Source: Blasia pusilla (lineage: Eukaryota). From it: a stretch of DNA of 64,000 nucleotides. The position numbers were made by a program, and so were the translations under genes. Positions within the stretch are counted from its first letter, which is position 1. Every line of letters starts with the position of its first letter. The stretch lies in the NCBI GenBank assembly GCA_050084515.1, contig CM114271.1:10168001-10232000 (forward strand), in the 5' to 3' direction. Under the pieces are notes generated by a model. The model searched no databases. It was not told the DNA's origin and saw only the letters and a program-made list of their open reading frames with translations. Shown here in pieces: positions 8,801 to 53,557 of this stretch.

Positions 8801-10857
8801 AAGAGCGAAGTACTTCTTTCTCTTCTTCTTCTTCTTCATGCTTTGTTCAAGAGCGAAGCACTTCATACACAAGTTCTTGAGAGAGCTTCGTTGTCTTTTC
8901 GAAGCTTCTTGTTGGGTCTTTAGACTTCGTTATTGTATTCTCCTCTCCTCTCAGGAAAATCCTTGATTTTCTATCTCTCTGCCTTGTCCTTGGAGCTTTG
9001 TGATTCACTTTAATCTTGCTCATTCTTCTCCATAACCATAATATCAAAATCATAGTGTATATACAAGTCTTCTTTGAATAAAAAGATGTAATTCTTCAAA
9101 AGTACAAAATTGTGGGCATCACACCCACTCATGAGAAAGGGTTGTTTGCGATGGTCCATTGCTTGAGGAAGTGGCGTCACTATTTAGGACTTCACAGGAC
9201 TCGAGTGTTCACGGATAACATATCGCTCTAGTATTTTGAGACCCAAGATCGAGTTACACCGAAACAACTAAGATAGCATGATACCTTGGCGTTGATGAAT
9301 GTGGAACTCATCTACAAGCCAAGGAACGATAATATCATTTCGGATGCGTTGAGTTGCAGGGATGAGGACATGCCATCAACAACATAGGTCTTGAGAGCAA
9401 TGTTCCCTAAGGAAACAGATCTGGAAAGAAGGATTCGTTAGGGATACATGAAAGACACCCAGGCAAGCAAGTACCTAAGGACGTTGAAGCAGGGCGAGAA
9501 GGTGGGCAACATAAGTTTGAGACATGGTTTACTAAGGTTCAAGCAAAGCAGGATCTATGAACCAAGGTGTTAGTGGAATGTTATGATGGATCCTTGGCAA
9601 GACATAAAGGGGAGAAAGCCACGTTGGCTATTCTCGCTAAAAGGTTCTTTTGGCCCAACATGAAAGAAGATGTTGCTCGATATGTGAAGACTTGGGTGAC
9701 CTGTCAGGCGAATAGGGTTTCTTATGCAAACAAACAAGGCTTGTTGCATCCCTTGCCGATTCCGGACGGACCCTTGCACAATGTGAGTATGGACTTCATA
9801 ACGAGTCTTCCTGAGTCTGAGGGATACAATACTTGTGATAGTTGATCGGTTCAATAAGTTGGGGAGATTCATGCCGACAGTGGATTCAGAGACGACCTAT
9901 ACGACTTCCTGACTCTTCCTAGATAGTTGGTGGCGCGCACACGGATTGCCAAGGAGTATTGTTTTAGATCGGGATCCAAAGTTTACCTGTGCCTTTTGGA
10001 AACACTTGTTTAGGAGGTTCAAGACCGAGCTGAGTTTGAGCAGGGCCTTCCATCCGCAGACGGATGGGCAAACGGAAAAGGTAAACTCCCTCGTGAACCA
10101 ATACTTAAGGAATTACGTGAGCGCGGACCAGCAAGATTGGGTGAAGTGGTTGAGTATGGCGGAGTTCTGCTACAACTCCACCAAACATTATGCAATAGGA
10201 GAATCTCGGTTTCTCTTGGCTTATGGACGTGAGCTAGAAGGGCCTCTTGACCTAGCCCTTTCGAAGGGTACTACATCAGCACCGACCCGACAAGCAACGA
10301 TAGAGGATTTGTTAGCGGAAATGCGAGAACGACAAGAGCGAGCAAGGAGAAACCTTGAAAAGGCTCAACTGAGGTAAGTGAAGCATGCTAACAAAAGCAA
10401 GCACCAAGTGAGATTCCAAGTTGGAGAATAAGTGTGGTTGAGTGTGAAGAATCTCACTCTTCCGAAGGAGTTGTCCGCGAAGCTATCTGCCAAGTATGTT
10501 GGACCGTATGTGATTAAGGCAAACCCGTTTGAGGATGTGTATATATTGGAGCTGCTAGAAGAGTTCAAGATACATCCCACTTTCCATGTGTCATTGTTGA
10601 AGAAGTATCTTCAGGATAATGACCGTCGCGAGCGAAGACAGGCATTGAGACCACAGTCGATAATCGTAAGCGAAGAACCAGAATTTGAGGTGGAGACCAT
10701 CTTGCGTGCGAGGTGTAGGGCCAGCACATACAAGTACTTGGTCAAGTGGAAAGGCTACCATGTGAAAGAGGCGACTTGGATTGCAAAGGCAGATCTGGAA
10801 CATGCGCAAGAGGTGTTGCAGGACTTCAAACGGTTGCAAGGGAAGCACATGTGTTAG
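5824..10857 (+). pseudogene. Chromovirus gag-pol polyprotein (stops, frameshifts, internal insertion)
   Basis: ORF fragments 6111-6635, 6744-7034, 7074-7565, 7806-8039, 9567-9845, 9946-10377 and 10432-10857 carry the domains in gypsy order. Confidence 0.92.
8166..9123 (-). mobile_element. Truncated LTR inserted between RT and RNase H of the chromovirus
   Basis: The reverse complement starts TGTGATGCCC at 9123 and aligns with the solo LTR at 46919 (TGTGATACCC; shared GAGCAAGGGAGTAGTACCCTCTC and TTTGAAGCTTTCTCATTCTTGATGG). Part of the host RT/RH junction is missing. Confidence 0.8.
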
Positions 10858-14556: not shown

Positions 14557-16197
14557 CTAGCTGAGCAGAGGCCTGTTGGCAGTTTGAGGCACGGGCTCGT
14601 TTGGTTCAGAGATCTGTCGGTCCTGACTGGTCTGTTCTTCTCCCTTCCAAATGGATCGGTCACTGCCGAAATCAATGAAAAAAGACTCCTCATCCGCTTT
14701 CCAACCGAGGGCTTGGGTTGGCCTACGGACGAGTCTTTCTGTCATCTCCAGCTCTTGTTGCAGATCTGGTGGCAGCTCCCCTGGAGGTTTGACACTTTCA
14801 ACCATCCTCAACACGACACCCATTTGAGGTCTGCAGTCTGGATCTCGTTGTAAGCACATTAGCGCAACAGTGATGAGCTGTTTGGCTTGCCCGGCATCGA
14901 AATCCGCCAATCGTGGATCGACAACGTCCTGCTCAGCATTGGCAAGTACTTTTCTGATTGCCCAGGCAGGCAGAAAACTTCTGTCATCTGGCAGTGAATG
15001 ATCTAAATGCCTTCGCCCGCTTACCAGCTCCAGGAGCACGATTCCGTAACTATACACATCCATTCTTGAGGTGGCTGCACCCGCATAAACTTCCGGGGCC
15101 ATGTATCCGAAAGTACCTCCAGAAGCTACGGTGTGGGTTCTAGTATGACCAAGGAGCTTAGCCATGCCAAAATCTGCCACCTTAGGTGCGAAGCTCTCAT
15201 CAAGCAAGATGTTCTCTGGCTTGATGTCAAGATGGATGATGGTTTGCCCGATTTGAAGTTCCTCATGGAGATAAGCTAAGCCCTTAGCAGTCCCCTTGGC
15301 AATCTCTGCTCTAGTCTTCCATGGAAGTAATTTCTCCTTGGTAAAAATCCACTTGTCCAAGGATCCATTTGCCACAAACTCATACACAATGAACGCTTGG
15401 CTCCTCTTGAAGCAACACCCTCTCAGTGCCACCAAATTGTTGTGATTAATGCTTCCAAGGGTCTTGACTTCTGCTTCGAAGTCCCTCAAGCCTCTCTGAC
15501 TGTCAAGCAGTTTCTTCACGGCCACTTCACTTCCATCTATGAGTGTGCCCTTGTAAACCACACCATATGATCCACGTCCTAGCTCCTTCCCAAATCCGTT
15601 AGTAGCATCGTTCAACTCTTCGAAGGAATACCTCATGCCCACAATTTTCGATGATACCATCTCATCTGTAGGGGGTCCAGACCCAACTTCCAAATCTTCT
15701 AATTCCTTTGCGCCCTCCTTGTTCTTGGAGAGTTTCCAAGACCTTAAAGACCACAGAACCGCGGCTATGAAGACGGCAACCACAGCTACAGAAATTCCAA
15801 TCACTCCACCAATACCCATACCTGTGTCATCTCGACGACGATCCGAACAAGGCCCGCTTAGGCATCCTACACCACAATATTCAACGCTTGATCCACAGAA
15901 TCCATACTCACTGCAGCATAAATCATTCCTGCAAGGATTACCTAGGTTGCATGATCCGGGATGCGTAGAAGCCACCGACGTATTACATGTGCTCTGACAA
16001 CCTGCCCCGCAAAAGGTTTCTGTGACTCCACAAAACCCATCCCTACTGCAGCAGCGTCCGGTGATACAAAGAGAGTTGTTCGCTTGACGACCACAATCTG
16101 CGGCACTGCTGAGTTGAAGATTTAGAGCTGTGAATGCGATCCAAATAAGCAACAGCACGGCGGGAGGAGCTTTCCTTCTGCAGTTATGTCCATGCAT
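14557..16197 (-). CDS. Receptor-like Ser/Thr kinase with two extracellular hevein-type (CBM18, Chitin_bind_1) domains; non-RD kinase; 546 aa, no introns
   Basis: First ATG is at 16197 (the ORF track starts at a GTG). Hydrophobic signal peptide. Two 8-Cys domains: CGRQANNSLC..CCSRDGFCGVTETFCGAGCQSTC and CNLGNPC..CCSEYGFCGSSVEYCGVGCLSGPC. TM helix GGVIGISVAVVAVFIAAVLW. Kinase motifs GRGSYG, VAVK, HLDIKPENILL, DFG, GTFGYMAPE all intact. Confidence 0.93.
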   Translation of the reverse strand: MHGHNCRRKAPPAVLLLIWIAFTALNLQLSSAADCGRQANNSLCITGRCCSRDGFCGVTETFCGAGCQSTCNTSVASTHPGSCNLGNPCRNDLCCSEYGFCGSSVEYCGVGCLSGPCSDRRRDDTGMGIGGVIGISVAVVAVFIAAVLWSLRSWKLSKNKEGAKELEDLEVGSGPPTDEMVSSKIVGMRYSFEELNDATNGFGKELGRGSYGVVYKGTLIDGSEVAVKKLLDSQRGLRDFEAEVKTLGSINHNNLVALRGCCFKRSQAFIVYEFVANGSLDKWIFTKEKLLPWKTRAEIAKGTAKGLAYLHEELQIGQTIIHLDIKPENILLDESFAPKVADFGMAKLLGHTRTHTVASGGTFGYMAPEVYAGAATSRMDVYSYGIVLLELVSGRRHLDHSLPDDRSFLPAWAIRKVLANAEQDVVDPRLADFDAGQAKQLITVALMCLQRDPDCRPQMGVVLRMVESVKPPGELPPDLQQELEMTERLVRRPTQALGWKADEESFFIDFGSDRSIWKGEEQTSQDRQISEPNEPVPQTANRPLLS

Positions 16198-16705
16198 TGT
16201 GGCAAAGAGAACGTGCTTCTGCACGCTGTGAAGAGCAACCAGAATAGGACTTCTGAGCTGCTAACAGTGCTACAAAGCTAATAAGAACGATCTCAGAGAA
16301 AGTGAGGCCCGCTGGATCGGAAAGAAAACATGAAGCTGCAGATTGCGATTGACAGCTTACGTAGACGGAGAGTGTAGTGAGTGCGAGAAGAGAACACGCA
16401 CACATGAGGTTTACTGATTTTGCCGCTCACCAGCGATTCGGACAGAACGCTAAGAGGTAATACATTCAGGAGCACATACGATACAGAAGAGACCTCAGAC
16501 ATGGAATCTTGCCAAGCACAAGGGCAAGGGACAAACAAACCAGAGAGAGAGCAAAGCCGACGAAAGTTCCCGCGATCTGGGATCTGCGGATACTCGACCA
16601 ATGCACCCTCAAATTCTATCTCGAAAGCTACGAAGTATCAGTACACGGCTCAACTGCCTCCGGGGAAGACCAACGCGAGGAGGTAGATGGTGCAGGTGCA
16701 CCGGC

Positions 16706-17222: not shown

Positions 17223-18459
17223 TCGGTTGAACTAATTGAACGCCTATTCCCACGTAGAATCTTCTAGCCCACAAGAATCCAAGCATTTGAGCTCAGCCTC
17301 CATTGACCTCTTCTTAGTCCCTTATTCTTCATTTCTTGGCCCTAACAATCAGATCCACCCCTTGGTTCAAACCCTCCTCTACAACAGCAATCAAGCACTC
17401 TATCTCCTTCATTGAATACCCTGGAGACTCCCTAGTGCCTACACCATCTCCCTTGTCTCCTCTAGGCTTGAGGTCAATGGAGTGACTTGGCTGCATTATC
17501 ACCTTGTACAATCTTCTTGACTTCTTTTTGGACAGCCTGCTACTGGGCCTTTCTCTTGCACCACCTCCACAAGTCCAAAAAACATATTCCAGAAAACTTT
17601 TACAAACACCATTATGGGTTCAAAAAATCTCGTCCTTTATTACCTCTGAAGGAACCTCGGAAATGTACATTGAACCTAGTCTATGATTTCTTCAGCCTCG
17701 TCATCTACAAATTTACTCCTAACTCTCCTCTGTGATGTACCAAAGGAATGTCTTTGGGATTCAAGTGGCTCCTCCGGCCGGTTGTAGACGGGATCGAAAA
17801 TGTTGGCGGTCGAGAGCCTTGGCCCCCCTAGGTACACCATAACAGTCCCATGTAACCTGTCTCGAGTCCCACCGCCTTCCTCGGCAAAAGATACCTTGTA
17901 CGCTCTGCAATGTGACACCCATCCAAGATCAATATCCGCTCCGTCCCTGTAATACCACTATGGCAACCGCACAAGTAGAAGGAATCCAACACGCCTGAGA
18001 GAAGAAAAGAAGCCTACGCCGCCTTTTACGAGTTGAGGGGAAGGTGCCAAGGGAAGAAGCTCGCCAGATCGCTCGATCCGAAAAGGGTCCGATCGGCAAC
18101 TGCCGGAATCGCGGGTGTTGCCTGGAGGTGGTAAAAATTCAGTGGTCAAAAGCGAAAAGTTGCAAGGAGGAGAAACCGACGGGTTGCAAAGTGGTCATAA
18201 AGTGAAAATTGCAAGTAGGAGAAACCGACGGGTTGCAAAGTAGAAGACCGTGGAGTACATAGACGATCACATTCAAAAGACAAAATGATCACCAAACATT
18301 TACAAGCACCACCATCGATCGAAAAAATCTTCGCTTTATATCATCCAGAAAAAAGCTCTGAATCGTACATTTGATCTATTCTATGAAATCTTTTGCCAAA
18401 TTATCAAAAACTCCCTACCCAAACGCGCTAGTCATTGTTGGTCGTTGAGTTCTTTGAAC

Positions 18460-21400
18460 TCACTCGTCATCGTCGAGAGCTCTTGCAAAATCACTTTCGG
18501 CCTTGCCCTCCCGATTTTGGGAATCGTTGGAAGTGACGATGGAGTCACTACCAAGGGTGGCTCGAACCGAGCTCTCGGCCGTGGAGAGTTGTACGCCCAA
18601 CGAGCCTTTCAGATCTCGCTTTGCCTCCTTGCAAAGGTCAAACAGATTCGCCTTCCTCGAGGCGCAGAATGTTCTGCCACTCGCCAGCGCCTCGATACTC
18701 GCCCTGAAAGGCCCACTAAGTCGAACACCAAGTCACCCGGCCTTGAGCAGAGCTCGATGAGCGTTGCATCGGGTGGCGACTTTTCCCTTCCTCCCGAAGC
18801 GGGTATCTTGTCTTGCATGTAAATTCCTCGGGGGAATTGTACAAACTATCTAAGCCGCACCCATCGAGCATGGATCCACAGGATCCTGGATCTTGAACAC
18901 TGAAATTGTGCTCGGGCCGAACGGCAAAGACATGTAGGAGTGGTCCATCGTCAGAATCAAGACGAAACAATGTCAGAAACTAAAGAAGTCGCCTTGAGAA
19001 TATTTTCAATAACTGACTTTGGATCAACCTGTCGGAGTCCGACGGGTTGTTTTGTCTCGGACCCACCCGTCGGAACCCGACGGGTTGCAGTTGCTTTTGG
19101 GTTTTCCAAGTTGATTTTGGTTTTCGGATGCAACCCGTCGGAAGGCGACGGGTTGCTGGCCTAGACCAGCCCATGCTCGCCTGAGAGCAACCCGTCGCTA
19201 TTAGACGGGTTGCATCCAAAAACCAAAATCAACTGCAACCGTCAGGTTCCGACGGGTTGCAGGTACACCGCGGTTTTCCCTCTGTATGTGGGAAAGATGC
19301 AACCCGTCGGAAACCGACGGGTTGCTCTCAGCCGAGCATGGGCTACTCTAAGCCAGCAACCCGTCGCCTTCCGACGGGTTCAGCAACCCGTCGCCTTCCG
19401 ACGGGTTGCTCACGGACAAAAAAAACCCAGACTGACTCTCATTCTACACATCATTCATTCAATAATTGAAATTATTGTATAGGAATATAGCCTTACCCGA
19501 ATCTGACTCGTTGCGGATCGGAGTGGGTACTCGTTTTTTATGATCCATGATTGTGCCGTCCTCCACTTTAGCGACCTCTTGACGATGGAGGTTGAAGAGC
19601 TCGCCTCGCTCCCTCCGATCCAACACCAAGAAGCGACCCCGTCACTCGGATAGGGCGTGCGCAAAGGAGAACAAAAGTGCACTGGTCATAAGTGAGCGGC
19701 AGATTCCACTCGGTACCTCGTCGCCGGATTTTCGCCCCAAAGTCGCGAACCCCGAGGGCAGATCGGCGATCAATAGATCCACCGCAACCTCTTCCACCAC
19801 TCCATTCACCGCCCGCAGCAGCGTGCGTCGTTTCGTTGGAGCTTCCTTCCCAGCGTTGTCAATTTTTCGATGGCGCTTGTCAACGCTTGAGAATCAAGTC
19901 GTTCACCTAATCCAAGAAAGAGGTGAATCAAGGAGGACGCTTGTCGGGGTCGTTGTTTGTCTGTGTCTTCCCAAGGATGATGTGGGTGTATTCTCCTTGG
20001 GACAACAGGGCACCTCTCGCTTCCGCTTCTCTCTAGTCTAGGGACGGCTTGTCGGGTTTCGATGACCTCTCATTCGTGGCGTTTTCTTCGCCGAGGACTG
20101 GTCCGACCTCTCTTCCGTAGTCAGGCACGATTCCGCCTCTGGCCTCTCATCTTCAGGCTCTTTTGGGAAGTCTCGGCCTCTGAATTTTCCCTCCCCTCGC
20201 CTTGCCTTTGAGACCCGTTGTGGATTTGTCTTTGGCTGTCGGACCTTGAAGCCTACTCACTGTGTCTCGTGGGCCTGCTCTTCGCATCTCCTCCGAAGAA
20301 GTCTTCAGTGGATGAAATTGGGGATGTCGTCTTGTCCCGAGGCCCCTTTGCATCATGAAGCACTCGTAAGTCCTTATCCGCGATGTCTTTGGTCGTTGAA
20401 GTCGAGCCAAATGGGGCAATTCTCCACCTCCCAATCCGACATGTCCGACCCATCTCCACGTTGTACATGGAGAATGTCTCTGCGCATCCGGCGAAGCCCA
20501 CAATTTCAAGGCTACAGCAATTTTCCCCACGCACTGCGTTCTTATAGTGGACGAGGTACTGAATACCATCCGTTGGGCGCTTTTAGTCGAACATTATCGG
20601 CCGTCGCTCTGAGATCTCGCTTCTTCTTCGCTTGATCCCGTTTGTTACCCTCTACTTCTTCGTCAAGCTCGCCGAGGGAGGACGCAAACCTTGAACATGG
20701 TCTTGAATCCGGGGTTCTTGGTTGGCTTGTCCCGGATGTCGCCGAGCCAAACCTCGTAATCTCCGAACTTTCGGGGTTTGCTTCCGGCGGAATGGGCTCT
20801 AATCTTCTGAGCTCCGCTTGCAGACCATCCAGCACGGACTTCCCGATTTACCCGCAACGCGTCCGAGAACAACCATTCGCGTAGCCAATGCAAGATCACT
20901 GGATCGGACACACCTAGGGGATGGTGTGCCGCCCTCTTCTGGGCCTCTCGAGCCCTCGAGATCGATTTTCATCGTCGTATCCTGAACTCGCTAATCCCGG
21001 ATAACGCAAAACGATGCACGCGATCCAGCGACACTTTCTCCCCAATCCGACCATGCGGATCTTCATCCCTCTTCCGCTGACGCTTGATAATCGCCTTGAG
21101 CTCCTTGTAGAACTCCGGACCAAGTTCGGGGTTGAGAATGCTGATGTATCGCTGGCATCTTGCTCCAGATGTATTTCGTTGCAGAATCTGGCCAGCTTGG
21201 ATGAATTTGGCGCTCACGCAGATACCTTCTCCCTCCGCTCCAACTCCGGTCTGGCGCTTTTCTTTCTGTATCTATCGACCAGCAAAGGATGGTTACGGCC
21301 TGCATCTTGAGAAATAAACTTGTTTGCCCAAGTTTTCTTCTTAATTTGAGCACCCTTTGCAAGCATCGATTGATGAGGGCATCGCCAGAACCCCCTGTAC

Positions 21401-21490
21401 TCTCGGGTGCGTCGTAAGCACCTTCCTCACCCGATCGCGATCCTGGATCCATTGGTGGGTAACATTCCCCTCGATACAATCTTGCACATC
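18460..21490 (-). pseudogene. Large multi-exon gene with a C-terminal beta-class N6-adenine/N4-cytosine DNA methyltransferase-like domain (frameshifted in this sequence)
   Basis: Motif IV-like VDLLIADLPSGF (19782-19747), then VPxWN, LFSFAHAL.PSDG, WIIKNEYPL. GT donor at 19496. After the intron: YPLRGGREKSP..ATLIELCSRPGDLVFDL..SGASIEA.LASGRNIL.LEE (~18810-18650, needs frameshift repair). Upstream coding fragments at ~20250-21490 have no recognised domain. Confidence 0.72.
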
Positions 21491-22657
21491 AAACTCAACC
21501 CGTCGAGAAATTACATGGGTTCCGCAACCCGTCGGACTCGACGGTGCGTCCGGCTTCGGGTGGATTCTAGCAACAAGCTAAATGATGCAACCCGTCGGAG
21601 TCCGGCGGGTTGCATTCAGATTTGCTAATGCCAGGTAAGCAACTTCGTCGGACTCCGGCGGGTTGCTACTATCAGATTTTCGAATGTCTTTTAAGATTGA
21701 CACTCGTCGGACTCGGCGACTTGTTTGATGGAACATAGATTTAACTAGTTTTTGGCCCAAAGCAAACCGTCGGAGTCTGACGGGTTGCTCGAAAGGCCGC
21801 CTTGTGAGGTTGTTTTTTTAAGAATGCAACTCGTCGCACTCCGACGAGTTGCTCGAAATATTCTTGCAGGTCTAGAAGGTTTTGCCCCAAAGCAACCCGT
21901 CGAGTCCGACGGGTTGCTACCTCAAAAGTTTTTGGCGAAATCAACCCGTCGGACTCCGACGGGTTGATTAGGGAAAAATAGCTTCAAGGCAAGCAACCCA
22001 TCGGAGTCCAACGGGTTGCTTTGGGGCAAAACCTTCTAAACTCGCACTACTCGAGCAACTTGTCGGAGTCCGACGAAGTTGCATTCTTAAAAACAACTCA
22101 CAAGGCGTTTATCGAGCAACCGGCCGGACTCGACGGTTTGCTTTGGGCCAACAACTTGTTAAATCTATGTTCAATCATACAAGTTGTCGGAGTCCGACGA
22201 AGTTGCAATCTTAAAAACATCCAAAAAGCGGCAGAAATCCAAAGAACCCGCCGGAGTCGACGAGTTGCTTACCTGGCATTAGCAATTGAATGCAACCCGC
22301 CGGACCACGGGTTGCATCATTTAGCTTGTTGCTAGAATCCGACCGAAGCCAGGATTTACCTGCCGCTTGAGTCCGACCGCTGCGTGAACCCATGTAATTT
22401 CCTCGACGGGTTGAGTTTGATGTGCAGATTGTATCGAGGGGAATGTTACCCACCATTGATCCAGGATCGCGATCGGGTGAGGAAGGTGCTTACGACGCAC
22501 CCGGGAGAGTACAGGGGTTCTGGGCGATGCCTCGTCAATCGATGCTTGCAAAGGGTGCTCAAATTAAGAAGAAAACTTGGGCAAACAAGTTTATTTCTCA
22601 AGATGCGGCGTAACCATCCTTTGTCGGGTCGAAGATACAGCCGCGAAGAAAAGCGCC
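21253..22657. repeat. ~1.4-kb inverted duplication (two ~0.7-kb arms) centred on a perfect short palindrome
   Basis: GCATCTTGAGAAATAAACTTGTTTGCCCAAG... (21302) is reverse-complemented at ~22577-22607. Centre AATCAACCCGTCGGACTCCGACGGGTTGATT at 21939-21969. The arms differ mostly by small indels. Confidence 0.9.
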
Positions 22658-24348
22658 GCAATGACCTCGCTGCCATCGAGTTGAACGGTGTTGTTTCCAT
22701 TATGTTGATTGTGTCCCCGACTTCGTGGGGACATTTCCCGATCTCAACACTTGCGGTTGACGGGCCGGGCTATCGTCAATGGCTATTGCTTTTCCCCCCG
22801 CTTTAGCCAATTCCGCCCTCCTCACCGACGGCCCGGACACTTCTTTTTCTCTTTTCGCCGGCAATCCTTTTCTTCAAGGCCTGCGACGTCTCGGCCTCTT
22901 CGTTCGTTTATCTAGCGCTTGAACACGCCTCGCGAAGCACTTGGTTGTGCATCTCCGCTTCCCTTTCCGCTCCTCGATTTCCTCGCCGCCTAATTTCATT
23001 CGCGAACGAGGCGCAGGAGAAGCCGACGCAGAGTCCTAATGGACTTGGGAGTGAAGCTCCGGACTTGTTGGCTTGTGTTTTTTTTTCCTTGTCATTTTTG
23101 CCGGAAATGCCTCCGCCTATGTCCACGCATTTAATCCCTTTGATCGATCGCCTTGCTGATGTCGAGATGGGAGCTCGTCTCGCCTTGGTGGTTAGCTCGA
23201 ATCGTCCCGATATTGCTCGGTCGAACCGTCTCGCTCTCGTTCCGTCCTATCGACTCGCGATGTGTTGTCGCGTGAAATGCCCCTTCGTATCTGATCAGCT
23301 GCTGCGCGGGAGAGTGAGGAGTGAGGAATGAAGATCGCGAAATGAGAAACCGGAAATGAGCGACTTCTACCCTATTTATACTTTTCTAGCCGTTGGGCTG
23401 ACCGTTGGGTCCCGTCGTCCTTTCGACGGCGACGTGCCGAATGTTACGGAAGTCCGGACGTGAAAAATCGCAACCCGTCGGAGTCCGACAAGTTGCGCGG
23501 CTCCGCCATCCTGGGAACGTCGCCACGTGCGCGAGCAACCTGTCGGAGCCCGACGGGTTGAGCGCCTCCGTCGTCTTCGGAAAAGAACGCGAGGTACCCG
23601 CGCAACCCGTCGGAGACCGACATGTTGCGTGCCTCCGCCATCCTGCGAACGTCGCCACGTGCGCGAGCAACCCGTCGGAGACCGACGGGTTGAGCGCCTC
23701 CGTCGTCTTCAAAAAACAACGCGAGGTACCTTCACAAGCCGTCGGAGACCGACATGTTGCGCGCCTCCGCCGTGTTTGGGACGGGAACAGGACGTATTTT
23801 AGGCAATCCGTCGGAGACTGTTGGGTTGCACGCTTCCCTTATCAAGGGTTAGGAACGATGGCTTACCGTGCAAGTCGTCGGAGTCTGGCCTGGTCGCACC
23901 ATTGGCGACGCTTGCGCAACCCGTTGGAGGGCGACGGGTTGCACGCCTCGCCGGGAACATACGGTTTGCACGCCTCCGGCATCTTCGAGCAAGAAGGAGC
24001 GGTATCCTAGCAAGTTGTCGGAGAGCGACGGGTTGCTCGCTTCGACAATGTTTAGCAGAAGCGTGCAACCCGTCCGATGCCGACGGGTTGCGAGCCGATA
24101 AGCTTCGGGTAATTTCGAGTTACCAGGACTCCGACGGGTTCCAAGTGATGCGCAACCCTCGCTTCCCAAATCCGGTAACATATTGCAACACAATTGAATG
24201 TGTTACAGAATTGGATCCATTGTGTCAGAAAATCTCCCCCACTGAATTCATCTTGTCAGTAAAAATCTGCCATGAGTATCTGTTTCCTATTCACTATAAA
24301 TTAAATATTCTCATTCTCATTCTCATTCTCATTCTCGTTTCCCCGTAG

Positions 24349-27300
24349 GAATCTTCTTGGAATGGATAATTATGTTAAGCTCACTTGTGGCGTCATCTGG
24401 CGGCCCTTCCTCAATCAAATCATTCGACCCCAAGCTCGTGAGTCTTTCGTGAGCAGATGGATGAAAATTTTCATGCATTCGATTTCTTCTTCAATTGGAA
24501 CCATCTTTGTATCCAAAGATGTTAGGGTGGAAGGTACGGAAGACATAATAGGTGAGACGGTCCAGCCAAAGTGACCTCGTAGACCGTAAAGTATGGAATC
24601 TCCTACACCGCCGCAAATGGTCAATACAGAGTTTACTTTTGCCCCTGAATTCGCCTGTTTCCCAAGTAGACGGTCTAGAATTTCCTAGTGCTCCGAGCTC
24701 ACGTTTGCAACTCCAAGCTCTGCAGATCCGGCCGACTCCAACCGCACACTCGTAACAATGTTGTTCTTCCCTGAAGAGATTCCGGATGTTATCAACCTCG
24801 GCCGGATCTGCTTCGGACACCAATCGGGCTCTGTCGTCACCTACTCGTTCCTCTTGCGAGTATCAGGCAATAGTTTGCTTTCGTCTCGCCCTTGAAAATG
24901 TTCAAGCATATTCTTGTCGCATTTAGCCGCCCACGCACGATGGTAATCGCATTTTTGAGTTGCCTCCACTTGCCGCTCTGCTCAAAAGAAGGATGGAGGA
25001 TGCCTGAAGGGTATGGGGAGTAAAGTCGATTGTCATCGATGGTGCAGGCTTCAACGGACCAGTGCTTCCATCCCATATGGTCCTTGGATTGTCTCCCGCG
25101 GCCAATGCGTGGGAGCCTTGGAGTGTAGAAGTCCACCATGCCCGTATCTAGAGCGCAACGGGCGAGTCAATACGTCGTAATTCCCCCCCAAGAATGCAGA
25201 AACTCCATACGAGGTGGGTGCCACAATACCGCCGGGAGGCCATCGATGTCCTCATTGTCAGGCATCGCCCTTCTACGTTGGAGCGTGTCCTGCATACATA
25301 TTTTTCATTGTCCATGACTTGGGCTCCACGCCGAGTATACAAGGTCGGGGATTCATGTTGGCTCCACACTCATCCTGTGGACCGATGCAATTCAAAGACA
25401 CATCAAGGAGGATGTGGCGAAGAAAGTAGCCGAGGTCTTCAGAAACTCTCCGGGTTCAAAGCCCGGGGTGATCAAGCTCACAATGGCATCACAAATTTGT
25501 GAGCAATTGCTTGGAATCCCTGGACAGGGCGAGATCACGGCGGTTGAGGAGAAACAACTCGAGAAAATCTCACATTTTCGCTGATCCCGAATGCTTCAGA
25601 ATTTCTTTGCGTCGATCTGAGTTCGGATGGAAAGACGGCCGAAATGGATGCCATCGCGTAATCAAGGCCAACTCCAGGTTTCCATTCATTCAGAGATGGC
25701 GTTCATGGGCCAAGGAGGCGAGGGATCCAGGGCCTATGTCTTCAAAATGTCAACCACAGTCCGTCGAGTGGCCTCGATCTTATAGATCGAATGAGGGAAG
25801 GGGAAGATCTTTACTGAGCCGGGTCAGGTCAGCTTTGATATTTGCTCAGAGTGCTGAATGGATGGTTGACGATGGGTGCTCACGTTTATGACCATGTGGA
25901 GAAGGGACTCAAAACTATATTTGTGTGTGAAGTAAAGGCGAAGATGTTGGCGGTTTGAAGATGTCTTTGGTTACTCTTATTGGAGGTGGTGAAGGAAAAC
26001 AAAAGGCCACCTCCGAAATTTATGGGTTCATGGTAGACAATGCACAACCTGGGTGGATTGCTATCCGGAAGTGTTTCGGGGTGGAGAGGTTCAACCTGAG
26101 AGGGAAAGGTTGGATGCTTTCCATTGGCAATGATCTGTGACCCGGTACACCAAATCTTGCATCAAGGAGAATAAGAGGACGGAGCATGTCACTCTACTCC
26201 AACGCTGCAAGGACAAAGCAAAACTTGAAGCAGGCCATGGATCGGGAAGAACTTCATGGGTGGTGGAGGAAGCATGCGATTGAGGGGAAGTACAAAGAGT
26301 TGTGCTCTTGGTTGAGTTGGTGGATGCGTATGAGACAATGGGGAAACTTCATGCGGCAGGTGAGTTCACTATTTTGTCTTGTCAAGCTCACGCTGAGAAT
26401 TGTTTGTAAAGTTGTAGCTCAGGGTGAGAAGCGTGGGAATTATATGGATTTCAAACCCAAGAGACCAAGCAAGCTGTCGGATGCGACGGGTTGCCCGAGT
26501 GTGCAACCCAATGGAAACCGACGGGTTGCCCGAGTGTGCAACTCGACGGAAACCGACGGGTTGCCCGAGTGTGCAACCCGACGGAAACCGACGGGTTGCA
26601 TCCACATGTTTGGTGTCGTCCCGGGTGTGCAACCATTCGGGACCCGACGGGTCACAGAGTCGTTCATGGGATGCCTCGGCCTTGCAACCCGTCAAGTTCC
26701 GACGGGTTGCAGTAGGTGGGTTTAAGTTACAACACGTCGGGACCCGATGGGTCGCAGAGTCGTTCATGGGATGCCTCGGGCCTACAACCCGTCTGGTTCC
26801 AACAGGTTGCTTATTTCTTTGACTCCTGGGTTATTTTCGTTCCCTTCTAACATTGCCGTCGTTGCAGGGATTGAACGTTCATGAAAATGCCCTGTGCCCC
26901 AACACAAGTGGAGAGAAAGTGTTCATTCCTCTTGAGGTCGTCACAAGCATGCCAACAAATTTCACTTGTGGAGGCATGCCAACAAGACCAGGCAAGAGCA
27001 ATGCTGATCTGCAAACATCCCATATCTTTCTCACAAAAGGCATAACAAAAGGAAAAGGGCCGTCGATCTACGAGCTCTATGTCAGGGCGGTTGTGAGATC
27101 TGGTCATGAAAAATTGTATGTCGAAGCCTTCAACCGGTGCGTAGCTGGAACTCCACTCGAGCAAGACGTACACATTGGTGGGGATATTCGTGGGCGGGTT
27201 TCAAGACGTCCCATATAGATGGTGGTAGAGCAGTCCGAACGAGACTCGTGGAGACCACATAAGTATCTTGACTTGCGGTGAAGAGGCAAGATCGAGGAAC

Positions 27301-28337
27301 GAATCCGGTGATTGATTTGGATGAGGAAATTACACCGCCAGGTATTCGAGGACCCGGACCGTCCCAAATCCGTGATGGAGTTACTTCTCCAAAATCGTGA
27401 ATGTTTTATTTCAAAAGCCCTCCGTTCTTTGGAAGTTCGCAACATCCATCCTTTGGGGTGGTTCAACAATATGGGATTCCGGTAATGGAGGTGGATTGCA
27501 ACCTAAAACGGTGGCATATATCTTGGAGCAACCGGGACATGGACCCACTGCAGGCGTGATCGATGGCATTAGGAGAGCATGCGGCACTTTCCTAAATAAG
27601 AATCACATAAGGATGGGCGACCCTGCCTGGGTTTTGGGGACTCAAAACCTTTGATCGTTTCACGAGGACCGGGATCAATTGAAGTACTTCTTCGCCCAAA
27701 TGAATCTTGCGCTTTCGGAAGTCTTATCCGGCGCCATTGGAGCTCGGGAATACCCCACGATTTGGCCCATCGCCGCAGTACGAATCGCACTCAAGACAAG
27801 TAGACAATCTTACAAGTGCGGTTTGACTCGTAGACGGGGAAGTTCAGAGCATGTTCGACACGAGACCTTCGATTTCGTATTCAACCCAAGATTGATGTCA
27901 ACATGTACCCGGAGAAGGTGGATGATCTCAATCCATTATTTCTGTTTGAGTCTAGAAATGGGGTGAAGAGAAACAGAATGTGCAGACCAACGGTGGAGAG
28001 AGCAAAGCGAATTGCATCAGCTCGGGAGGCAAAAATGGAGATCATCGCCACGAAAGATGTCTTGAGTGGCAATGGAATAGGAAGGATGTATTGGGCCAGG
28101 AACAACATTGTAAATTCAAGTGTCACAGGGGTGTATGTGGTGCACATTTGTTGCTTTCCCACATGTTCATGTGATGACTTTGTCCAAAGAGAGACAAGTG
28201 GCAAAAGATATTTCCCTTGTAAGCACATGTACTATGTGTTGCTGGTAGTTTTAAGAGAGTCGGAGGTAGGAGTAGGAATCCACCAACCAATTCTGTCCCT
28301 CAAAGAAGTGCGAAGTATTTTAAACAAACCACTTTGA
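24349..28337 (+). pseudogene. MULE-type transposase: GCM-like Zn domain, DDE core, SWIM zinc finger (frameshifted, with introns)
   Basis: GCM-like: DGNRIFELPP, CVGALEC..PPCPYL, CPHCQASP..GACPAY..HTHPV (~24930-25380). DDE core: SFD (25831-25839), GFMVDNAQ (26024-26047), CxxH-type C.FHW (~26115). Intron GT 26360 to AG 26867. ESVHS (~26915). SWIM: YVVHI...TCSCDDF...PCKHMYYV. Confidence 0.82.
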
Positions 28338-28789
28338 GGATGCAAAATGAGGTTTTAGATTGTACTTTTATTTTTCCTCAACCTTCACTTTGAGCTTGAA
28401 CTCTATTCAGCCCGGGGCAAATGATAGATTTTTTCCAGACTTTGGATGGAAAAAGTGATTGGTTCCACACTTATGATTCCACTGATTTTTCAGTTTTCTA
28501 AATTTTGTGCAATTTGCAACTCGTCGGACTCACAGGGGTTGCCAAAATATGGAAGAGGAAAAAAACACTGTGGGATTGTTTAATAAATGAACAAAACAGT
28601 GCAAAAATATTCACACAAAAAGTTTCCTCTCTTCAACCCAACGGAAACTCTCGTAAAAAAAAAGTATCTATTTCGGTTGAAGGTAGTTTCCTCTCTCCTC
28701 TCTCCTCTCTTCCTCTCTCCTCTCTCCTCTCTTCCTCTCCTCTTACCGCACCTCCCCACAATGCTATCTTCTCCCTGTCCTCCAACCTG

Positions 28790-31029
28790 ATAGAAAGCTG
28801 ATGATAGCCAACACGGAGATCTTAAGTAGTAAAGATCTTTGCATGACCTACCGCATCAAAGCTCTCCTCTGGAGTAGGCACGGCATGGCATGACACTCGC
28901 ATCTGTCTCTGCTCAGCCATATCTAGGCTGACTATCCATGTGAGATAATTGAGGTCCATCGCTTGCCCCAACACCTGTCTCCAAGATGCCTCAGTCATAC
29001 CTGGCACCGCTGTAGTACCCATAGCGAACCCCATGGCTTGCTCGCGCTCATCTACTGTAGGCTCCTCCAATGCAGGGGTCACCTCATCCCAAATCATATC
29101 CGGCCCTCCCTAACAAAGACATGGGATGTAGGGAAGCTCACCAACGTAGGTAAGGCTGCCCTCAACTCCCCCGCCCTATTGGTCATCGCCAACGGTGGTC
29201 TATCATCCCGCGTCACCACTTGAGATTGACGCGCTAAGCCCAAAATAACATCCACTGTGAGATGTGGTGCTCTCTAGACTCTATCGTATGCTCGACTCAG
29301 TACTTCTGATGGTATCAGGTTCGTCCACCACAGTCGTGGATGATGGGCGGGTGATCCAACTCTTGCTACATCTAACAACACAACAGGTCCCAACCAGGAC
29401 CTCACCTAATGCACACTCGTCATCACACATGCAAGAGTGTCTCTCAATAATGGCATGTTCTCCAAATTGTACGCCGGAGAACATGTCTGACTCTCCTACA
29501 CGTGTCGTACTACTCGTAGCATCTCCCAAAACATCCCTCACCTCGGATCCTGCAATCCAAACCCTCGGCCAACTGATGAATGATCCTCATATGGCCCCGT
29601 ACTGCAGATACCGGCAACAACTCAAGATACCTCTGGACCAATCTCGCTACGTGACATAATGGTTCTCTCCGCGCGGTCTCATCTCTCTCCACATAAAGGT
29701 ACTGATGCACCTGTATGTCCGCCCGCAATACCGCAGCCAATCCTCTGCTAATCCCTCCAAAGAGATCTTACATCATAACACCCTCCTCTGGACACTACCA
29801 CACAACGAGTGTGATATCCAGTAGGGTCAACGTCTCCACTTCAGGGGCCCAATCGCCACCTGACTCTCGCTGCTCCGAGATAAAGGCATGACTCCACGCC
29901 TGCCTCATGATGTCGTCGGCACTCCTCTGTAGCTCTCAAGTCGTACCTCACAATGGTGAAGAAGTCTCGCCAACATGGGAAGAGACACCCGCCATGGCTT
30001 GCCTCTCTTTGGGACTATCCACTACTGGGACATCCTCCGCATGTGCGTTCCCCTCCAACAACTCTCTTGGCTAGTTAACACTACTTGTGAAAGCTACCAA
30101 CGTGGTCACAGACTTATCTCGTGATCAACCGCCTTGTCCCGCAAGCTGCACGGGTAGCTAACTCATCCGCCCATCACCTGACCGCCATCGTGGTCGATAA
30201 GCAACAGTCTCCTCCCAGAAGTCAAGGATGAATCCTAGGGGATATAACACTATACTCCCCACCAACACATCGTACGACTCAATTAGTGTGGTAATCGCAC
30301 GTGTGCGCACCATAGCATTATCCGTCGGATGCTCTGGCTGGACTCTAACAACTATCTCTTGTCAAGTCATATATTGCGTGGGTGACACGCCCCCAATTCA
30401 GGTCTGTATCTAGAAGGGACAAGGCTCAATGTCGGCCTTTCGTAACCCCAACGCTAAATATGCCACCTTCCCTAATATCAAGGGTTGCGCTCCTGAATCA
30501 AGTAGGATGCGCTGCAGGTGGTATATTGTCCCCGTCAGATTAACCAGGAAAAATACTCCAGCTCGATTAACCAGTAGCACTACTCCAGGTGTCATCACTG
30601 CTCGCTCTATGGCCGGTCGAGCTAGCATATCTACCAACTTTTCCGCCACCGCATGCCATGACTCTGTGGGGGACGTCCCTTGCACCTACTCTGAGGGCAA
30701 GTCCACCACCTCCTCAACTACCTCTGAACAAGAGGTAGTCACCTCTCCATGCTCACACAACTTGGCGGCTAGGCGGAACACCTCAGCTGGTCCAACTCCC
30801 AATGTCGCCAACTCTATGGCGGAAAATAGCTGAGTGTGGCTCACTCTAGTGGCCACCTCCAACACTATGGTTGACACTGACTCCACTCAAGCCAGCATAT
30901 GAGTTGTCACTCCAACTCCTCATGACGTCGATGTACTTGCCTGACCTATAGGCACTGCTGGTCGTCAAGGCATCATCGATGGTGTGTGTAGTGCCTGCAA
31001 CAATATGAATGAATGTGGAACCCTGGCCT
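28790..31029 (-). mobile_element. Gypsy-like retrotransposon, downstream part: gag-protease linker, aspartic protease, C5-DNA methyltransferase
   Basis: Protease RILLDSGAQPLILGK (~30510-30468). The frame joins 44489+ across the CACTA TSD (GWQ|ARVPHSF..TPSMMP), matching the uninterrupted homolog at ~57735 (KQARLPQSF..TPSMVP). Confidence 0.85.
28822..29785 (-). pseudogene. Cytosine-5 DNA methyltransferase (DNMT) domain remnant inside a retrotransposon polyprotein
   Basis: Motif I DLFGGISRGLAAVLRADIQVHQYLYVERD (starts 29767). Motifs IX-X EEPTVDEREQAMGF..GTT..RQVLGQAMDLN (~29070-28945). The central PC motif region is not seen; ~29280-29590 is unrelated or decayed. Confidence 0.78.
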
Positions 31030-31581: not shown

Positions 31582-37686
<6,105 letters not shown>

Positions 37687-49760: not shown

Positions 49761-49812
49761 TCATGTAAGTCATCTTAATGCAATGTTAATAATTAAATAA
49801 TATGGAACAAGA

Positions 49813-52575: not shown

Positions 52576-53189
52576 TGTAAAGAGGAGAGGAGAGTCTATC
52601 TTAAAAAAAAGGCACAAAAGGGAAAAAAAACTGAAACTCTCTTCAAAAAATATGAAGATTATGGATACTAAGTGAGTAATATTTTTGGAGATTTCTTTTG
52701 AAGAGAGGAAACTTAGTGCAACACGTCAGAATCCGACGGGTGGCAAATTTTTGGTTTTTTCTTTGTGGATTAGGGGAAAATTTTAATTTTTGGTGATTTT
52801 TTAACGTTTGCAACATGTTGGATTGTGACGGGTTACTTTTTAGGCATCATGGCAACCCGTTGGACTCCAACGGGTTGCAAACGTTAAAAAAACCCAAAAA
52901 AATGGAAATTTTTCCCTAACCCAAGGAAAAAAAAACCCAAAAATTTGCAACCCGTCGGATTCCAACGAGTTGAAAAGGTCAAAACAAAAACCTTTTTTTT
53001 TCATTGCCAATTTTTCATGGAAAAAATTTTCTTTTTCAACTTGTCAAAACTTTCCTCTTTCCAACATGTCAGAAACTCTCTTCAACCTATGGGAAGCTCT
53101 CTTCAAACCAAGAGAGCCTTAGGGGTTGCCAATATCTTCCTCTCTCCTCTCTCCTCTCTTCCTCGCTCCTCTCTTCCACTCCTCTTACC
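52576..53189. mobile_element. Short non-autonomous derivative (MITE) of the palindrome-bearing MULE family
   Basis: Left end GTAAAGAGGAGAGGAGAG; right end CTCTCCTCTC..CTCCTCTTACC, as at 28690-28747. Four degenerate CAACCCGTCGG..CCGACGGGTTG copies. Internal inverted repeat ~52742-52813 / 52873-52948. Confidence 0.7.
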
Positions 53190-53557
53190 ACTCCTCATGA
53201 GATAAGTGGGGGCGTGTCCACAGTTTTGGCATTGTCTAGTGTGGTAACCCACTCTTTTGAGCATTTTGTAGTTGGGATGTTTTTTGTACAGAAATAGGTA
53301 AAAGTCTTCATGAAGGAAGATTGAAGATTCGTAGAAGATTGTAAATATGAATAGAGGAAGAGAAATAGTTGGAATAGTACTTGACAAGGCTGGTCAGTGA
53401 AACTCCATTGAGAAGACAAGGAGATTGGAAGAGCAGGTAATTATCTTGGAGGAGTGGGAACTGTAGTAAGCGGAGGAAAGGAGAAGAGACAAGGAAGAAG
53501 TAGGAGAGGCGCGGGTATTTCTCGGCGAAGACTGCAGTGTGGAAAGATGGTAAAGAT

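Follow-up and report, generated by a model that had tools for sequence, protein, structure and literature searches.

Does the locus analysed here harbor a transposon that carries a DNA methyltransferase gene of its own? The question arises from the original prediction, in which a Mutator-like transposon was proposed to combine, head-to-head, a transposase gene with a bacterial-type beta-class DNA amino-methyltransferase gene; it was followed up in the 64,000-nucleotide window, that is, the whole stretch of DNA that was analysed. To our knowledge, few transposons have genes for writing, erasing, or reading chromatin marks on their own DNA; the known ones comprise VANDAL elements, fungal Plavaka elements with a TET/JBP gene, and the red-algal cassette of PF01555/SET and ParB/2OG genes. 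According to the reading proposed here, the interval at approximately 18.18-28.75 kb would be a single decayed member of a DNA transposon family, very abundant and with persisting low-level transcription, in a plant-like genome, encoding a SWIM transposase and a domainless, likely non-methylating accessory protein; the case for this composite reading is evenly balanced. The solid result is an uncharacterised, highly abundant, and transcribed two-gene element, the accessory protein of which has no recognisable domain. On present evidence, the methylase label should not enter the annotation.

In the proposed organization, two genes would point outward from a central motif-rich region. The plus strand gene is predicted to encode a SWIM-finger transposase, probably of the Mutator type, with at least one intron, and the minus strand gene would be a second, accessory gene. 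A 12-bp motif studs the non-coding parts of the element (i.e., both subtermini, the centre, and the introns), often as palindromic pairs, and its copies are putative binding sites of an element-encoded protein. Near the C-terminus of the accessory protein, the last exon encodes a block of approximately 42 residues reminiscent of a beta-class DNA methyltransferase at the end comprising motif X and the SAM loop. Nothing else of a methylase is detectable: (D/S)PP(Y/F) is absent, the glycine loop reads G-L-S-G, and the acidic residue after strand 2 is absent. The individual features are, in window coordinates, as follows.

18176 to 18236, plus strand: the two leftmost 12-bp motif copies, CCGACGGGTTGC, within a tandem repeat of 49 bp; candidate subterminal sites of the left side.
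18460 to 18979, minus strand: last exon of the accessory gene, with the stop codon at 18460-18462, a 1-bp deletion at 18701/18702, and at least one further frameshift near 18830.
18702 to 18827, minus strand: 42-residue block reminiscent of the beta-class DNA methyltransferase motifs X and I (the latter being the SAM loop), as seen by a local HMM, alignment to gp230 of phage rV5, and ESM Atlas.
18980 to 19496, minus strand: putative phase-0 GT..AG intron, with 11 copies of the 12-bp motif at 19039-19409.
19497 to 19893, minus strand: fragments of upstream exon sequence, shifted in frame near 19650; DLPS is at 19753-19764 and WIIKN in a second frame.
21253 to 22657, no strand assigned: nested foldback (MITE-like) insertion; its arms are approximately 365 bp long and 89% identical, and the 12-bp motif recurs in its interior.
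23470 to 24142, no strand assigned: central region between the divergent genes, with 13 motif copies and a 132-bp tandem repeat.
24400 to 28337, plus strand: decayed transposase gene, in which an intron (26360-26867) precedes the C-terminal module (from 26868); the SWIM-like finger spans 28155-28247, and the stop codon is at 28335-28337.
28516 to 28527, minus strand: rightmost copy of the 12-bp motif, with 1 mismatch, inverted versus the leftmost copies.
28627 to 28754, plus strand: candidate right terminal segment just beyond the last motif copy, recurring at 53076-53196 with 73% identity, where it adjoins four further motif copies.

The region is a very high-copy repeat, as 122,381 contig records of run X1 match a stretch of 11.5 kb. 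Transcription was observed directly in raw RNA reads of the same species label, with 376 matches among 10.1 million records (run X19) and 485 among 12.0 million (run X20). Most of these reads are less than 95% alike to the window and thus derive from other copies; since almost none match the window copy (14 of 376 and 5 of 485 at 99% identity or above), this copy may itself be silent. In the related copies, both genes are transcribed in the sense direction. The predominant RNA strand switches at the central region, and the strand split fits both genes, first-mate-on-plus reads reaching a depth of 7.5-11 at 18268-19035 and first-mate-on-minus reads one of 3.8-13.9 at 25948-27483. Of the earlier interpretation, which is supported in part, the two divergent transcribed genes, the high-copy repeat, the SWIM-like finger and confirmed intron of the transposase, the frameshifted state of this copy, and the deviation of the catalytic motif from DPPY stand; a significant beta-class match was not obtained.

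The predicted SWIM transposase gene is real and is covered by plus-strand RNA. Its GT-AG intron, which is in frame, was observed directly, the joint being present in nine reads (1 + 8), and the encoded protein contains a SWIM-like CxCx16CxH finger. The match to SWIM (PF04434) is marginal, however, with E 0.0096 and 15.9 bits against a Pfam cut-off of 19.6; the MULE DDE domain (PF10551) was absent from the Pfam scan of 148 frames, and the SWIM fragment had no match in the PDB. One distant homolog, P0001 (38% identity, E 1e-21), whose alignment begins with the codons that directly follow the intron, has kept the CxCx16CxH motif, itself being without a Pfam match. A Mutator-type pattern, D-N-A...A-I...C-F-x-L, can be discerned by eye at approximately 26030-26130, so it stays plausible that the element is Mutator-like.

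For the accessory gene, the underlying observation was confirmed in part, namely for the quoted protein strings, the first frameshift, and the plus-strand partner gene, but not for the second shift. All strings are found on the minus strand, spread over several reading frames that can be read directly: VDLLIADLPSGF..LFSFAHAL in the frame 19642-19893, PSDG..WIIKN in 19455-19685, GGREKSP..LIELCSRPGDLVFD..LSG in 18609-18845, ASIEALASGR in 18460-18732, and NILRLEE in a third frame. The shift after G-L-S-G is real and reflects the 1-bp deletion, which is specific to the window copy: past 18702, the RNA stays in frame with one extra G and reads A-S-M-R-G-A-W-H-S-G (hand translation of a 30-letter loose-end consensus; 20 and 18 reads in the two runs). 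The shift into NILRLEE is without backing, the frame after the first shift being open for 75 codons up to the stop codon. That same 75-codon frame is entered by an RNA variant skipping 59 nt in frame (8 reads, run X19); an expressed variant is devoid of the 20 codons following the SAM loop. In the last exon, the minus-strand RNA depth is 7.5-11, and read similarity stops 9 nt beyond the stop codon (loose ends at 18451 in 27 and 18 reads); the RNA reads of related copies show that the accessory gene is real and transcribed. As to the proposed intron, a canonical GT (19496) and AG (18980) join two open frames in phase 0, but an RNA joint was absent among the rows listed. In the bin 19036-19419, DNA depth falls to 484 and RNA depth to approximately 0.1; the upstream exon fragments have an RNA depth of just 1.1-1.6.

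All of the sequence support for a methylase lies in the block at 18702-18827. To detect such relationships, a local PF01555-type HMM was built from 36 PF01555 domains, with diversity taken from matches in five prokaryote genomes; a homolog search with E. coli YhdJ had given only close relatives of at least 68% identity. Among 1764 six-frame domain matches in the window, the block ranks first at 5.6 bits, versus 5.3 bits for the runner-up; with a lead of 0.3 bits, its methylase signal is not above window-level chance. The runner-up itself (18966-19037, same profile columns) overlaps a hairpin arm, is without a glycine loop, and was treated as spurious. Fragments or script-built read-throughs scored 5.6-6.3 bits with the same HMM. 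In a frameshift-aware profile scan, the block score was reached by 1 of 172 null bins under strict penalties and by 19 of 172 under looser ones, and is thus not above the null. PF01555 was found by Pfam in none of the single fragments and in none of the 148 frames of at least 52 residues, for which only four marginal families were returned; as a control, other genes of the same window were recognised as kinase (1e-44), reverse transcriptase (6e-23), and gag. With hhalign, 70% was attained only by the hand-picked three-frame reading of the original prediction; RNA-supported frames yielded 17-39% to the beta class, with the motif X-I block at 39%. Altogether, the beta-class (PF01555) identity obtained no significant match by Pfam, the local HMM, hhalign, or exhaustive phmmer with the motif IV fragment.

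Against PDB sequences, the SAM-motif fragment produced chance-level matches only (E at least 0.035), the first rows being light-harvesting antenna proteins of algae, none of which has a domain within the limit, and the three matches of the C-terminal frame are all due to chance. A word-index search retrieved no homolog of the SAM-motif fragment among proteins of 138-2000 residues. In tblastn searches with the block, one of the six gene families among those listed is a methylase, and of the two gene families matched on plasmids neither is; the 26 pattern matches in viral contigs included no relative. A tblastn match in a Cellulophaga phage lies on the strand opposite to the annotated gene and was rejected.

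The N-terminal half is wholly devoid of methylase support. The earlier remark that the catalytic motif is not DPPY is accurate, the sequence reading D-L-P-S, but the assignment of DLPSGF and WIIKN to motifs IV and VIII is without support from the local HMM, ESM Atlas, or phage tblastn. The upstream fragments score -3.0 and -1.7 bits; the motif IV fragment falls on the right HMM columns (10-21) yet ranks 1443rd of 1764. ESM Atlas gave no usable match for the upstream fragments, and tblastn against phages gave no methylase, the motif IV search matching two gene families. No relatives of the motif IV fragment were present among 1.84 billion representatives, and its one PDB match is due to chance. 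The three matches from exhaustive phmmer are all repeat proteins (F5/8 type C, FctA, and Ig-like) and were judged spurious.

Against this background, the strongest alternative is that the accessory gene truly descends from a beta-class enzyme (Type III Mod-like, PF01555) of bacterial or phage origin, which was captured by the transposon and now has introns and an altered catalytic motif. Its product would bind SAM or DNA, or retain some methylase activity, with the DNA of the element itself as target. This alternative is considered somewhat unlikely. In beta-class enzymes, the motifs follow the order IV...X-I, with motifs X and I near the C-terminus, and an acidic residue ending strand 2 (motif II) binds the SAM ribose. 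The block, at approximately 95 residues from the stop codon, sits where this order predicts. It aligns without gaps to residues 329-370 of the rV5 methylase gp230 (PF01555 at E 6e-43), with 33% identity over 42 residues that span exactly motifs X and I; the pairwise E is 2e-6, as opposed to a database E of 3-6. By eye, the expressed copies show G-x-S-G, 10 residues, and then R, which is the gp230 spacing, whereas in an ungapped extension, likewise assessed by eye, the motif II position reads S-R in the window versus I-E in gp230. Capture would further be in line with the top three ESM Atlas clusters for the block, all PF01555 at 0.84-0.85 (lead level), with the collinear best positions of the three fragments in the local HMM (columns 10-21, 81-89, and 190-204), and with the precedent of red algae, whose Plavaka and Mutator elements carry accessory genes of the PF01555 type (bioRxiv 10.1101/2025.02.11.637652). 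Against it speak the lack of a significant profile match anywhere, the hhalign values of the RNA-supported frames, the rV5 database E together with the single methylase among the tblastn families listed, the plasmid matches, the low score and missing relatives of the motif IV fragment, and the expressed variant lacking codons after the SAM loop. Besides, matching motif I does not single out the beta class, since in E. coli PF01555 also weakly matches (22 bits) that region of PrmA, an unrelated protein.

An extended version is unlikely. It holds that a very abundant and still expressed transposon family with a SWIM-type transposase, in a land-plant-like genome, carries an intron-bearing phage or bacterial beta-class (Type III Mod-like) descendant that has lost DPPY and would serve as a SAM- or DNA-binding factor aimed at the family's own palindromic 12-bp arrays, being a plant counterpart of the red-algal PAG2/PAG3 cassette. 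As the block, its location toward the C-terminus, the order of the ESM clusters, and the alignment to rV5 agree with one another, real methylase descent may be likelier than rated. The block could have been left behind by a captured methylase, or its resemblance could be due to chance or convergence. The favoured reading of the minus strand gene is that of a lineage-specific accessory protein, which would most likely be non-catalytic and not involved in DNA methylation.

Whether the two genes form one element at all is a separate issue. The distribution of the 12-bp motif is a direct observation: at up to one mismatch, 51 copies occur in the window versus 0.13 expected, of which 47 lie within 18176-28527. 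Many of these form palindromes in which two copies are separated by a 3-nt spacer, and the copies at the two extremes of the interval face in opposite directions. This concentration within the window copy, as the one basis for linkage, argues that both genes would belong to a single unit. According to the competing view, the minus-strand gene and the transposase gene stem from two repeat families or two copies that came to lie head to head by chance, and no two-gene element exists; this is improbable, as the motif brackets and fills exactly the two-gene interval with inverted outermost copies. Contigs of organism B, moreover, extend over all parts at depth 9-23 and approximately 95-99% identity, which may simply represent the orthologous locus; inside the nested foldback, their depth is 0 across 22108-22491. 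In favor of chance adjacency, the depths of DNA and RNA are strongly unequal between the halves, and DNA depth differs up to 40-fold (3,100 at 19.4-20.2 kb versus 146,000 at 27.9-28.3 kb), so that separate repeat families would fit as well. The only inverted repeat to frame the interval is the shared 12-19 bp motif; as neither TIRs nor TSDs were found around the gene pair, the element ends are undefined. A second copy of the 3' region (17594-17692 versus 18294-18392, 72% similar), which has its own RNA cover, suggests a local patchwork, and the interval is embedded in transposable elements that form a dense mosaic. Since the 12-bp motif is also present in the nested foldback and at 52.7-53.0 kb, it could belong to a separate, repeatedly inserted MITE family.

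A Pack-MULE-like capture, in which the block would be a piece of a host gene for a class I SAM-dependent methyltransferase acting on RNA, protein, or small molecules instead of DNA, is very improbable: motif I is common to all class I methyltransferases (compare the PrmA cross-match) and the best PDB match of the SAM-motif fragment with a domain alignment is motif I of precorrin-6y methylase (E 0.066), but the word index (proteins of 138-2000 residues) contained no plant or other protein relative of the fragment, and the motif X-like K-S-P before motif I as well as the C-terminal position suit the beta class better.

Several known systems resemble the two-gene element in part. VANDAL elements are Mutator-like elements of eudicots with the accessory genes VANB and VANC, where an element-encoded protein is thought to bind short motifs clustered in non-coding regions. 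The present element, likened to them by description, shares with them the probable Mutator type, the extra gene, and the clustered short motifs in non-coding parts, whereas VANC is not methylase-like, and gene order and motif differ. In En/Spm (CACTA) elements, subterminal 12-bp motifs are bound by TNPA. Many 12-bp copies in direct and inverted pairs in non-coding parts are also a trait of the element described here; however, its transposase has a SWIM-like finger and is not of the CACTA type, and no CACTA termini were seen. With beta-class enzymes such as the Type III Mod-like gp230 of rV5, the Marchantia protein MpDN4MT1, and the bdelloid rotifer protein N4CMT, the accessory protein would have in common the motif X and I-like block near the C-terminus, but it is devoid of a significant profile match, of (D/S)PP(Y/F), and of the acidic motif II residue, and its glycine loop is altered. 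MpDN4MT1 and N4CMT, moreover, are genes of the host and not of transposons.

A literature search for a methylase on a plant Mutator-like element returned nothing for plants. If true, a plant transposon with a methylase-derived accessory protein and palindromic motif arrays would extend the theme of such elements to the green lineage and provide a testable pairing between a DNA motif and an element-encoded protein.

In red algae, transposon-borne PF01555 accessory genes have already been described. There, Plavaka, Mutator, and Zisupton transposons carry PAG2, which combines a PF01555 DNA methylase with SET, and PAG3, which combines a ParB-like domain with a 2OG oxygenase (bioRxiv 10.1101/2025.02.11.637652). 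The likeness comprises a DDE transposon, an accessory gene beside the transposase, a possible PF01555-type module, and inverted-repeat tandem arrays inside the element. PF01555 and SET are, however, recognised by InterPro in PAG2, while Pfam finds neither here in 148 frames; the red-algal arrays adjoin PAG3, whereas here 47 motif copies lie inside an element in which no PAG3-like, ParB, or 2OG gene was found. The host is plant-like here and a red alga in the case of the PAG genes. DIRS1 retrotransposons, according to Iyer et al. (2016, PMC4738411), contain an inactive methyltransferase domain with substituted catalytic and binding residues, for which a role as binder only was proposed. There, the module belongs to the PCIF1-derived methylase group, is located inside the retroelement polyprotein, and is of firmly established homology; what it would share with the element described here is a transposon-borne methylase-like module with altered catalytic and binding residues.

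The element, a decayed copy, belongs to an uncharacterised family of two-gene transposons and holds a striking repeated-motif array. The original observation is confirmed in part. Of the original prediction, a Mutator-like transposon carrying a beta-class DNA methyltransferase gene head-to-head with its transposase, part of the architecture is supported; the methylase label is not. The accessory gene on the minus strand is real; every protein string from which it had been predicted was found on that strand, and no second copy of any fragment is present within the window:

19642-19893, minus strand: frame of VDLLIADLPSGF...LFSFAHAL
19455-19685, minus strand: frame of PSDG...WIIKN
18609-18845, minus strand: frame of GGREKSPPDATLIELCSRPGDLVFDLVGLSG
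18460-18732, minus strand: frame of ASIEALASGR
third frame, minus strand: NILRLEE

For the assessment of transcription and copy number, records of two RNA runs (X19, X20), DNA contigs of the same species label (X1) and contigs of organism B (X3) were placed on 17500-29000 at a likeness of at least 85%; evidence on other copies comes from this one placement of public reads and contigs and from protein databases. With 122,381 X1 records, the whole stretch is a high-copy repeat; its summed word depth is about 400 in the hairpin arrays and climbs to 146,000 at 27868-28251. RNA records are few (376 of 10.1 million in X19, 485 of 12.0 million in X20), and most reads derive from other copies of the element: 14 and 5, respectively, are at least 99% alike to the window copy, and 310 and 404 are below 95%. 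First mates map to the plus strand over 18268-19035 (depth 7.5-11 versus about 0.4 on minus) and to the minus strand over 25948-27483 (2.7-13.9 versus 0.2-2.1 on plus). This strandedness fits the prediction for two divergent genes and agrees with a first mate on the strand opposite the RNA.

The first of two frameshifts proposed for the accessory gene, directly after G-L-S-G, is borne out by the reads. At 18702, immediately past the last G codon of this loop, 20 X19 and 18 X20 reads stop matching; the 30 further read letters, translated by hand, continue in the same frame as A-S-M-R-G-A-W-H-S-G, with one extra G relative to the window, and the remaining two frames run into stops. The window copy therefore carries a 1-bp deletion at 18702. 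Eight X19 reads skip 59 nt (18643-18701, ends not GT-AG), by which G-L-S-G is joined in frame to F-D-L-C-K-E-A; that frame is open for 75 codons up to the stop at 18460-18462, and read similarity breaks off 9 nt beyond it, at 18451 (27 X19 and 18 X20 reads). Since the frame is fixed by the 18702 crossing, the 59-nt skip and the 18451 end, the C-terminus reads ...DDDE-stop, and the second frameshift, into NILRLEE, is unneeded and unsupported. A candidate phase-0 intron, its canonical GT lying at 19496 and its AG at 18980, would place an 87-codon open frame directly after ...SQIR; its splice joint is not among the RNA joints listed, and RNA depth upstream, at 19420-20187, is only 1.1-1.6. The region just 3' of the stop (18294-18392) recurs as a direct, 72%-similar duplicate at 17594-17692. 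Around this leftward duplicate, over 17500-17883, minus-strand RNA reaches a depth of 8-9 and DNA a very high 36,000, suggesting that the element is partly present a second time or has a non-autonomous relative there.

In the plus-strand transposase gene (24400-28337), the frame 27834-28337 contains a SWIM-like CxCx16CxH finger, at a Pfam E of 0.0096 under the cut-off, and has a single homolog, P0001, a distant protein of 507 residues (38% identity, E 1e-21) that is itself without Pfam match. P0001 also aligns to 26862-27269, beginning at the first codons past an intron. Nine RNA reads link 26355 to 26864, and because GT..AG occurs at an offset of +4 from this joint, the intron is placed at 26360-26867; the resulting splice is in frame and stop-free. 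No MULE domain was found in this gene by Pfam among 148 frames of 17.3-28.7 kb, and a D-N-A...A-I...C-F-x-L pattern at about 26030-26130 has, by eye, a Mutator-type look.

No inverted repeat was found framing the two-gene interval. The 12-bp word CCGACGGGTTGC occurs in the window in 51 copies at no more than one mismatch, versus 0.13 expected, many of them paired as palindromes with a 3-nt spacer; 47 of the 51 lie within 18176-28527, distributed as follows:

left edge, plus orientation: two copies
putative accessory-gene intron: eleven copies
nested foldback element, 21253-22657: fourteen copies
centre between the genes: thirteen copies
transposase intron: six copies
right edge, minus orientation: one copy

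The strongest argument for a single unit comprising both genes is this distribution, internal to one copy, and the array also suggests protein-binding sites. The remaining four copies, at 52733-52958, adjoin a 73% copy of the sequence beyond the right edge. Two further features lie in or next to this interval:

28627-28754: sequence following the right edge, recurring at 53076-53196 (73%)
21253-22657: foldback (MITE-like) element nested between the genes, arms of about 365 bp with 89% identity, internal hairpin units

All parts of the element are covered by X3 contigs at a depth of 9-23 and about 95-99% identity, the foldback insertion excepted; the X3 depth falls to 0 at 22108-22491, and organism B may therefore lack the insertion. 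Being short, these contigs give no linkage between the genes. In one of them, 24018 is followed after 3 letters by 20194, which hints at another order or a tandem arrangement of the 3.8-kb middle part in organism B.

As to the nature of the accessory protein, the full original hypothesis, by which its block descends from a beta-class methylase, is possible, if rather doubtful, and unproven. It draws on a 42-residue block (18702-18827, minus strand) resembling motifs X and I, within the SAM-motif fragment. Residues 8-48 of this fragment have PF01555 (N6_N4_Mtase, beta-class N6A/N4C DNA methyltransferases) as the top three clusters in the ESM Atlas (0.84-0.85, lead level by the tool's calibration). 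In 2.3 Gb of phage DNA, tblastn with the 48-residue part found 103 records at E <=10, comprising, among the matches listed, six gene families: a Caulobacter-phage ligase, a lambdoid terminase, a Gordonia hypothetical protein, a mycobacteriophage tail protein, a Cellulophaga match, which was discarded as lying on the wrong strand, and an rV5-like phage methylase. The latter, gp230 of phage rV5, belongs to PF01555 (E 6e-43); the block aligns with its residues 329-370 of 441 over 42 ungapped residues at 33% identity (pairwise E 2e-6, database E 3-6), spanning exactly the motif X to motif I segment. With the extra codon of the expressed copies, the spacing of G-x-S-G, ten residues and arginine equals, by eye, that of gp230, and the block lies about 95 residues before the stop, where it would be expected in beta-class enzymes, whose motifs run IV ... 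X, I, II, III.

Against this stands the absence of PF01555 from the single accessory-gene fragments and from all 148 frames of at least 52 residues in 17.3-28.7 kb, among which four marginal families alone reached E <=0.05; Pfam performed well on raw frames elsewhere in the window. In a word-index search of proteins of 138-2000 residues the SAM-motif fragment had no match, and its plasmid matches were terminase and UbiB, with no methylase. PF01555 also weakly matches the motif I region of PrmA of E. coli K-12 (22 bits), so that likeness to motif I is not beta-class-specific. The DLPS-containing "motif IV" fragment gave three matches, all long repeat proteins, when phmmer was run exhaustively over 1.84 billion representatives, and no usable match in the ESM Atlas; the two upstream parts matched 2 and 1 phage gene families by tblastn, none of them a methylase.

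A local PF01555 profile was built from 36 diverse domains (28 from five prokaryote genomes, 8 YhdJ-type). The SAM-motif fragment tops the 1764 six-frame domain matches, yet with 5.6 bits over 15 residues and a runner-up at 5.3; the "motif IV" and WIIKN fragments are placed where expected in the profile (columns 10-21 and 81-89) but score -3.0 bits (rank 1443 of 1764) and -1.7 bits (rank 413), respectively. Script-built read-throughs scored 4.0-6.3 bits without gain, over the same 15-32 residues every time. The RNA-supported one, at 6.0 bits, was reached by 0 of 2000 shuffles (maximum 5.7), about 5e-4 per sequence, which amounts to about one such match expected per window-sized stretch. DNA-versus-profile alignment allowing frameshifts and introns found nothing beyond the single block (23.8 raw bits), a score reached by 1 of 172 null bins under strict penalties and 19 of 172 under looser ones (1.5-kb bins of the rest of the window and the reversed sequence). 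By hhalign, the RNA-supported frames gave 39%, 28% and 17%; 70% was obtained for the originally predicted three-frame reading alone, which had been picked for methylase likeness. The methyltransferase label is unsupported. That the protein actively methylates DNA is unlikely, given the G-L-S-G loop, S-R at the acidic motif II position and an expressed variant without the 20 codons after the loop. A methylase-like relic is intriguing and unproven. A second weak profile match (18966-19037, minus strand, 5.3 bits, same motif X to I columns) lies 230 bp upstream in the same frame, is partly encoded by a hairpin arm and is probably due to chance, the alternative being a decayed duplicate exon.

Transposon-borne PF01555 accessory genes are already published for red algae. 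Plavaka elements of the red alga Bostrychia carry PAG2 (PF01555 and SET) and PAG3 (ParB-like and 2OG oxygenase), which adjoin tandem arrays of inverted repeats, and homologs are reported in Mutator elements of Chondrus, in Zisupton and in Fanzor-encoding elements (bioRxiv 10.1101/2025.02.11.637652). DIRS1 retroelements contain an inactive methylase domain, and N6A methylases are few in land plants (PMC4738411). The 4mC writers of Marchantia and rotifers are host genes. In the literature searched, no methylase gene was found reported in plant Mutator-like elements.

The setting of the element is plant-like sequence rich in transposons, the surrounding LTR-retrotransposon frames forming a transposable-element mosaic:

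14560-16260, minus strand: receptor-like kinase gene, intronless and apparently intact, amid transposons (Pfam)
6027-6632: gag frame (Retrotrans_gag, 1e-11)
34742-35356: reverse transcriptase (RVT_1, 6e-23)
58874-60139: copia-type gag/pol
6027-10377, 34742-35359 and 58874-62432: retroelement pieces overall

The kinase gene encodes two hevein-type chitin-binding domains (Pfam 2.4e-18) and a protein kinase domain (Pfam 1e-44), together with a membrane span. A pair of direct repeats, each about 2.3 kb long (49799-52111 and 53544-55776, 79-90% identity, 3.65 kb apart), encloses copies of the hairpin motif and a match to 28627-28754; the pair may represent LTRs or have arisen by tandem duplication.
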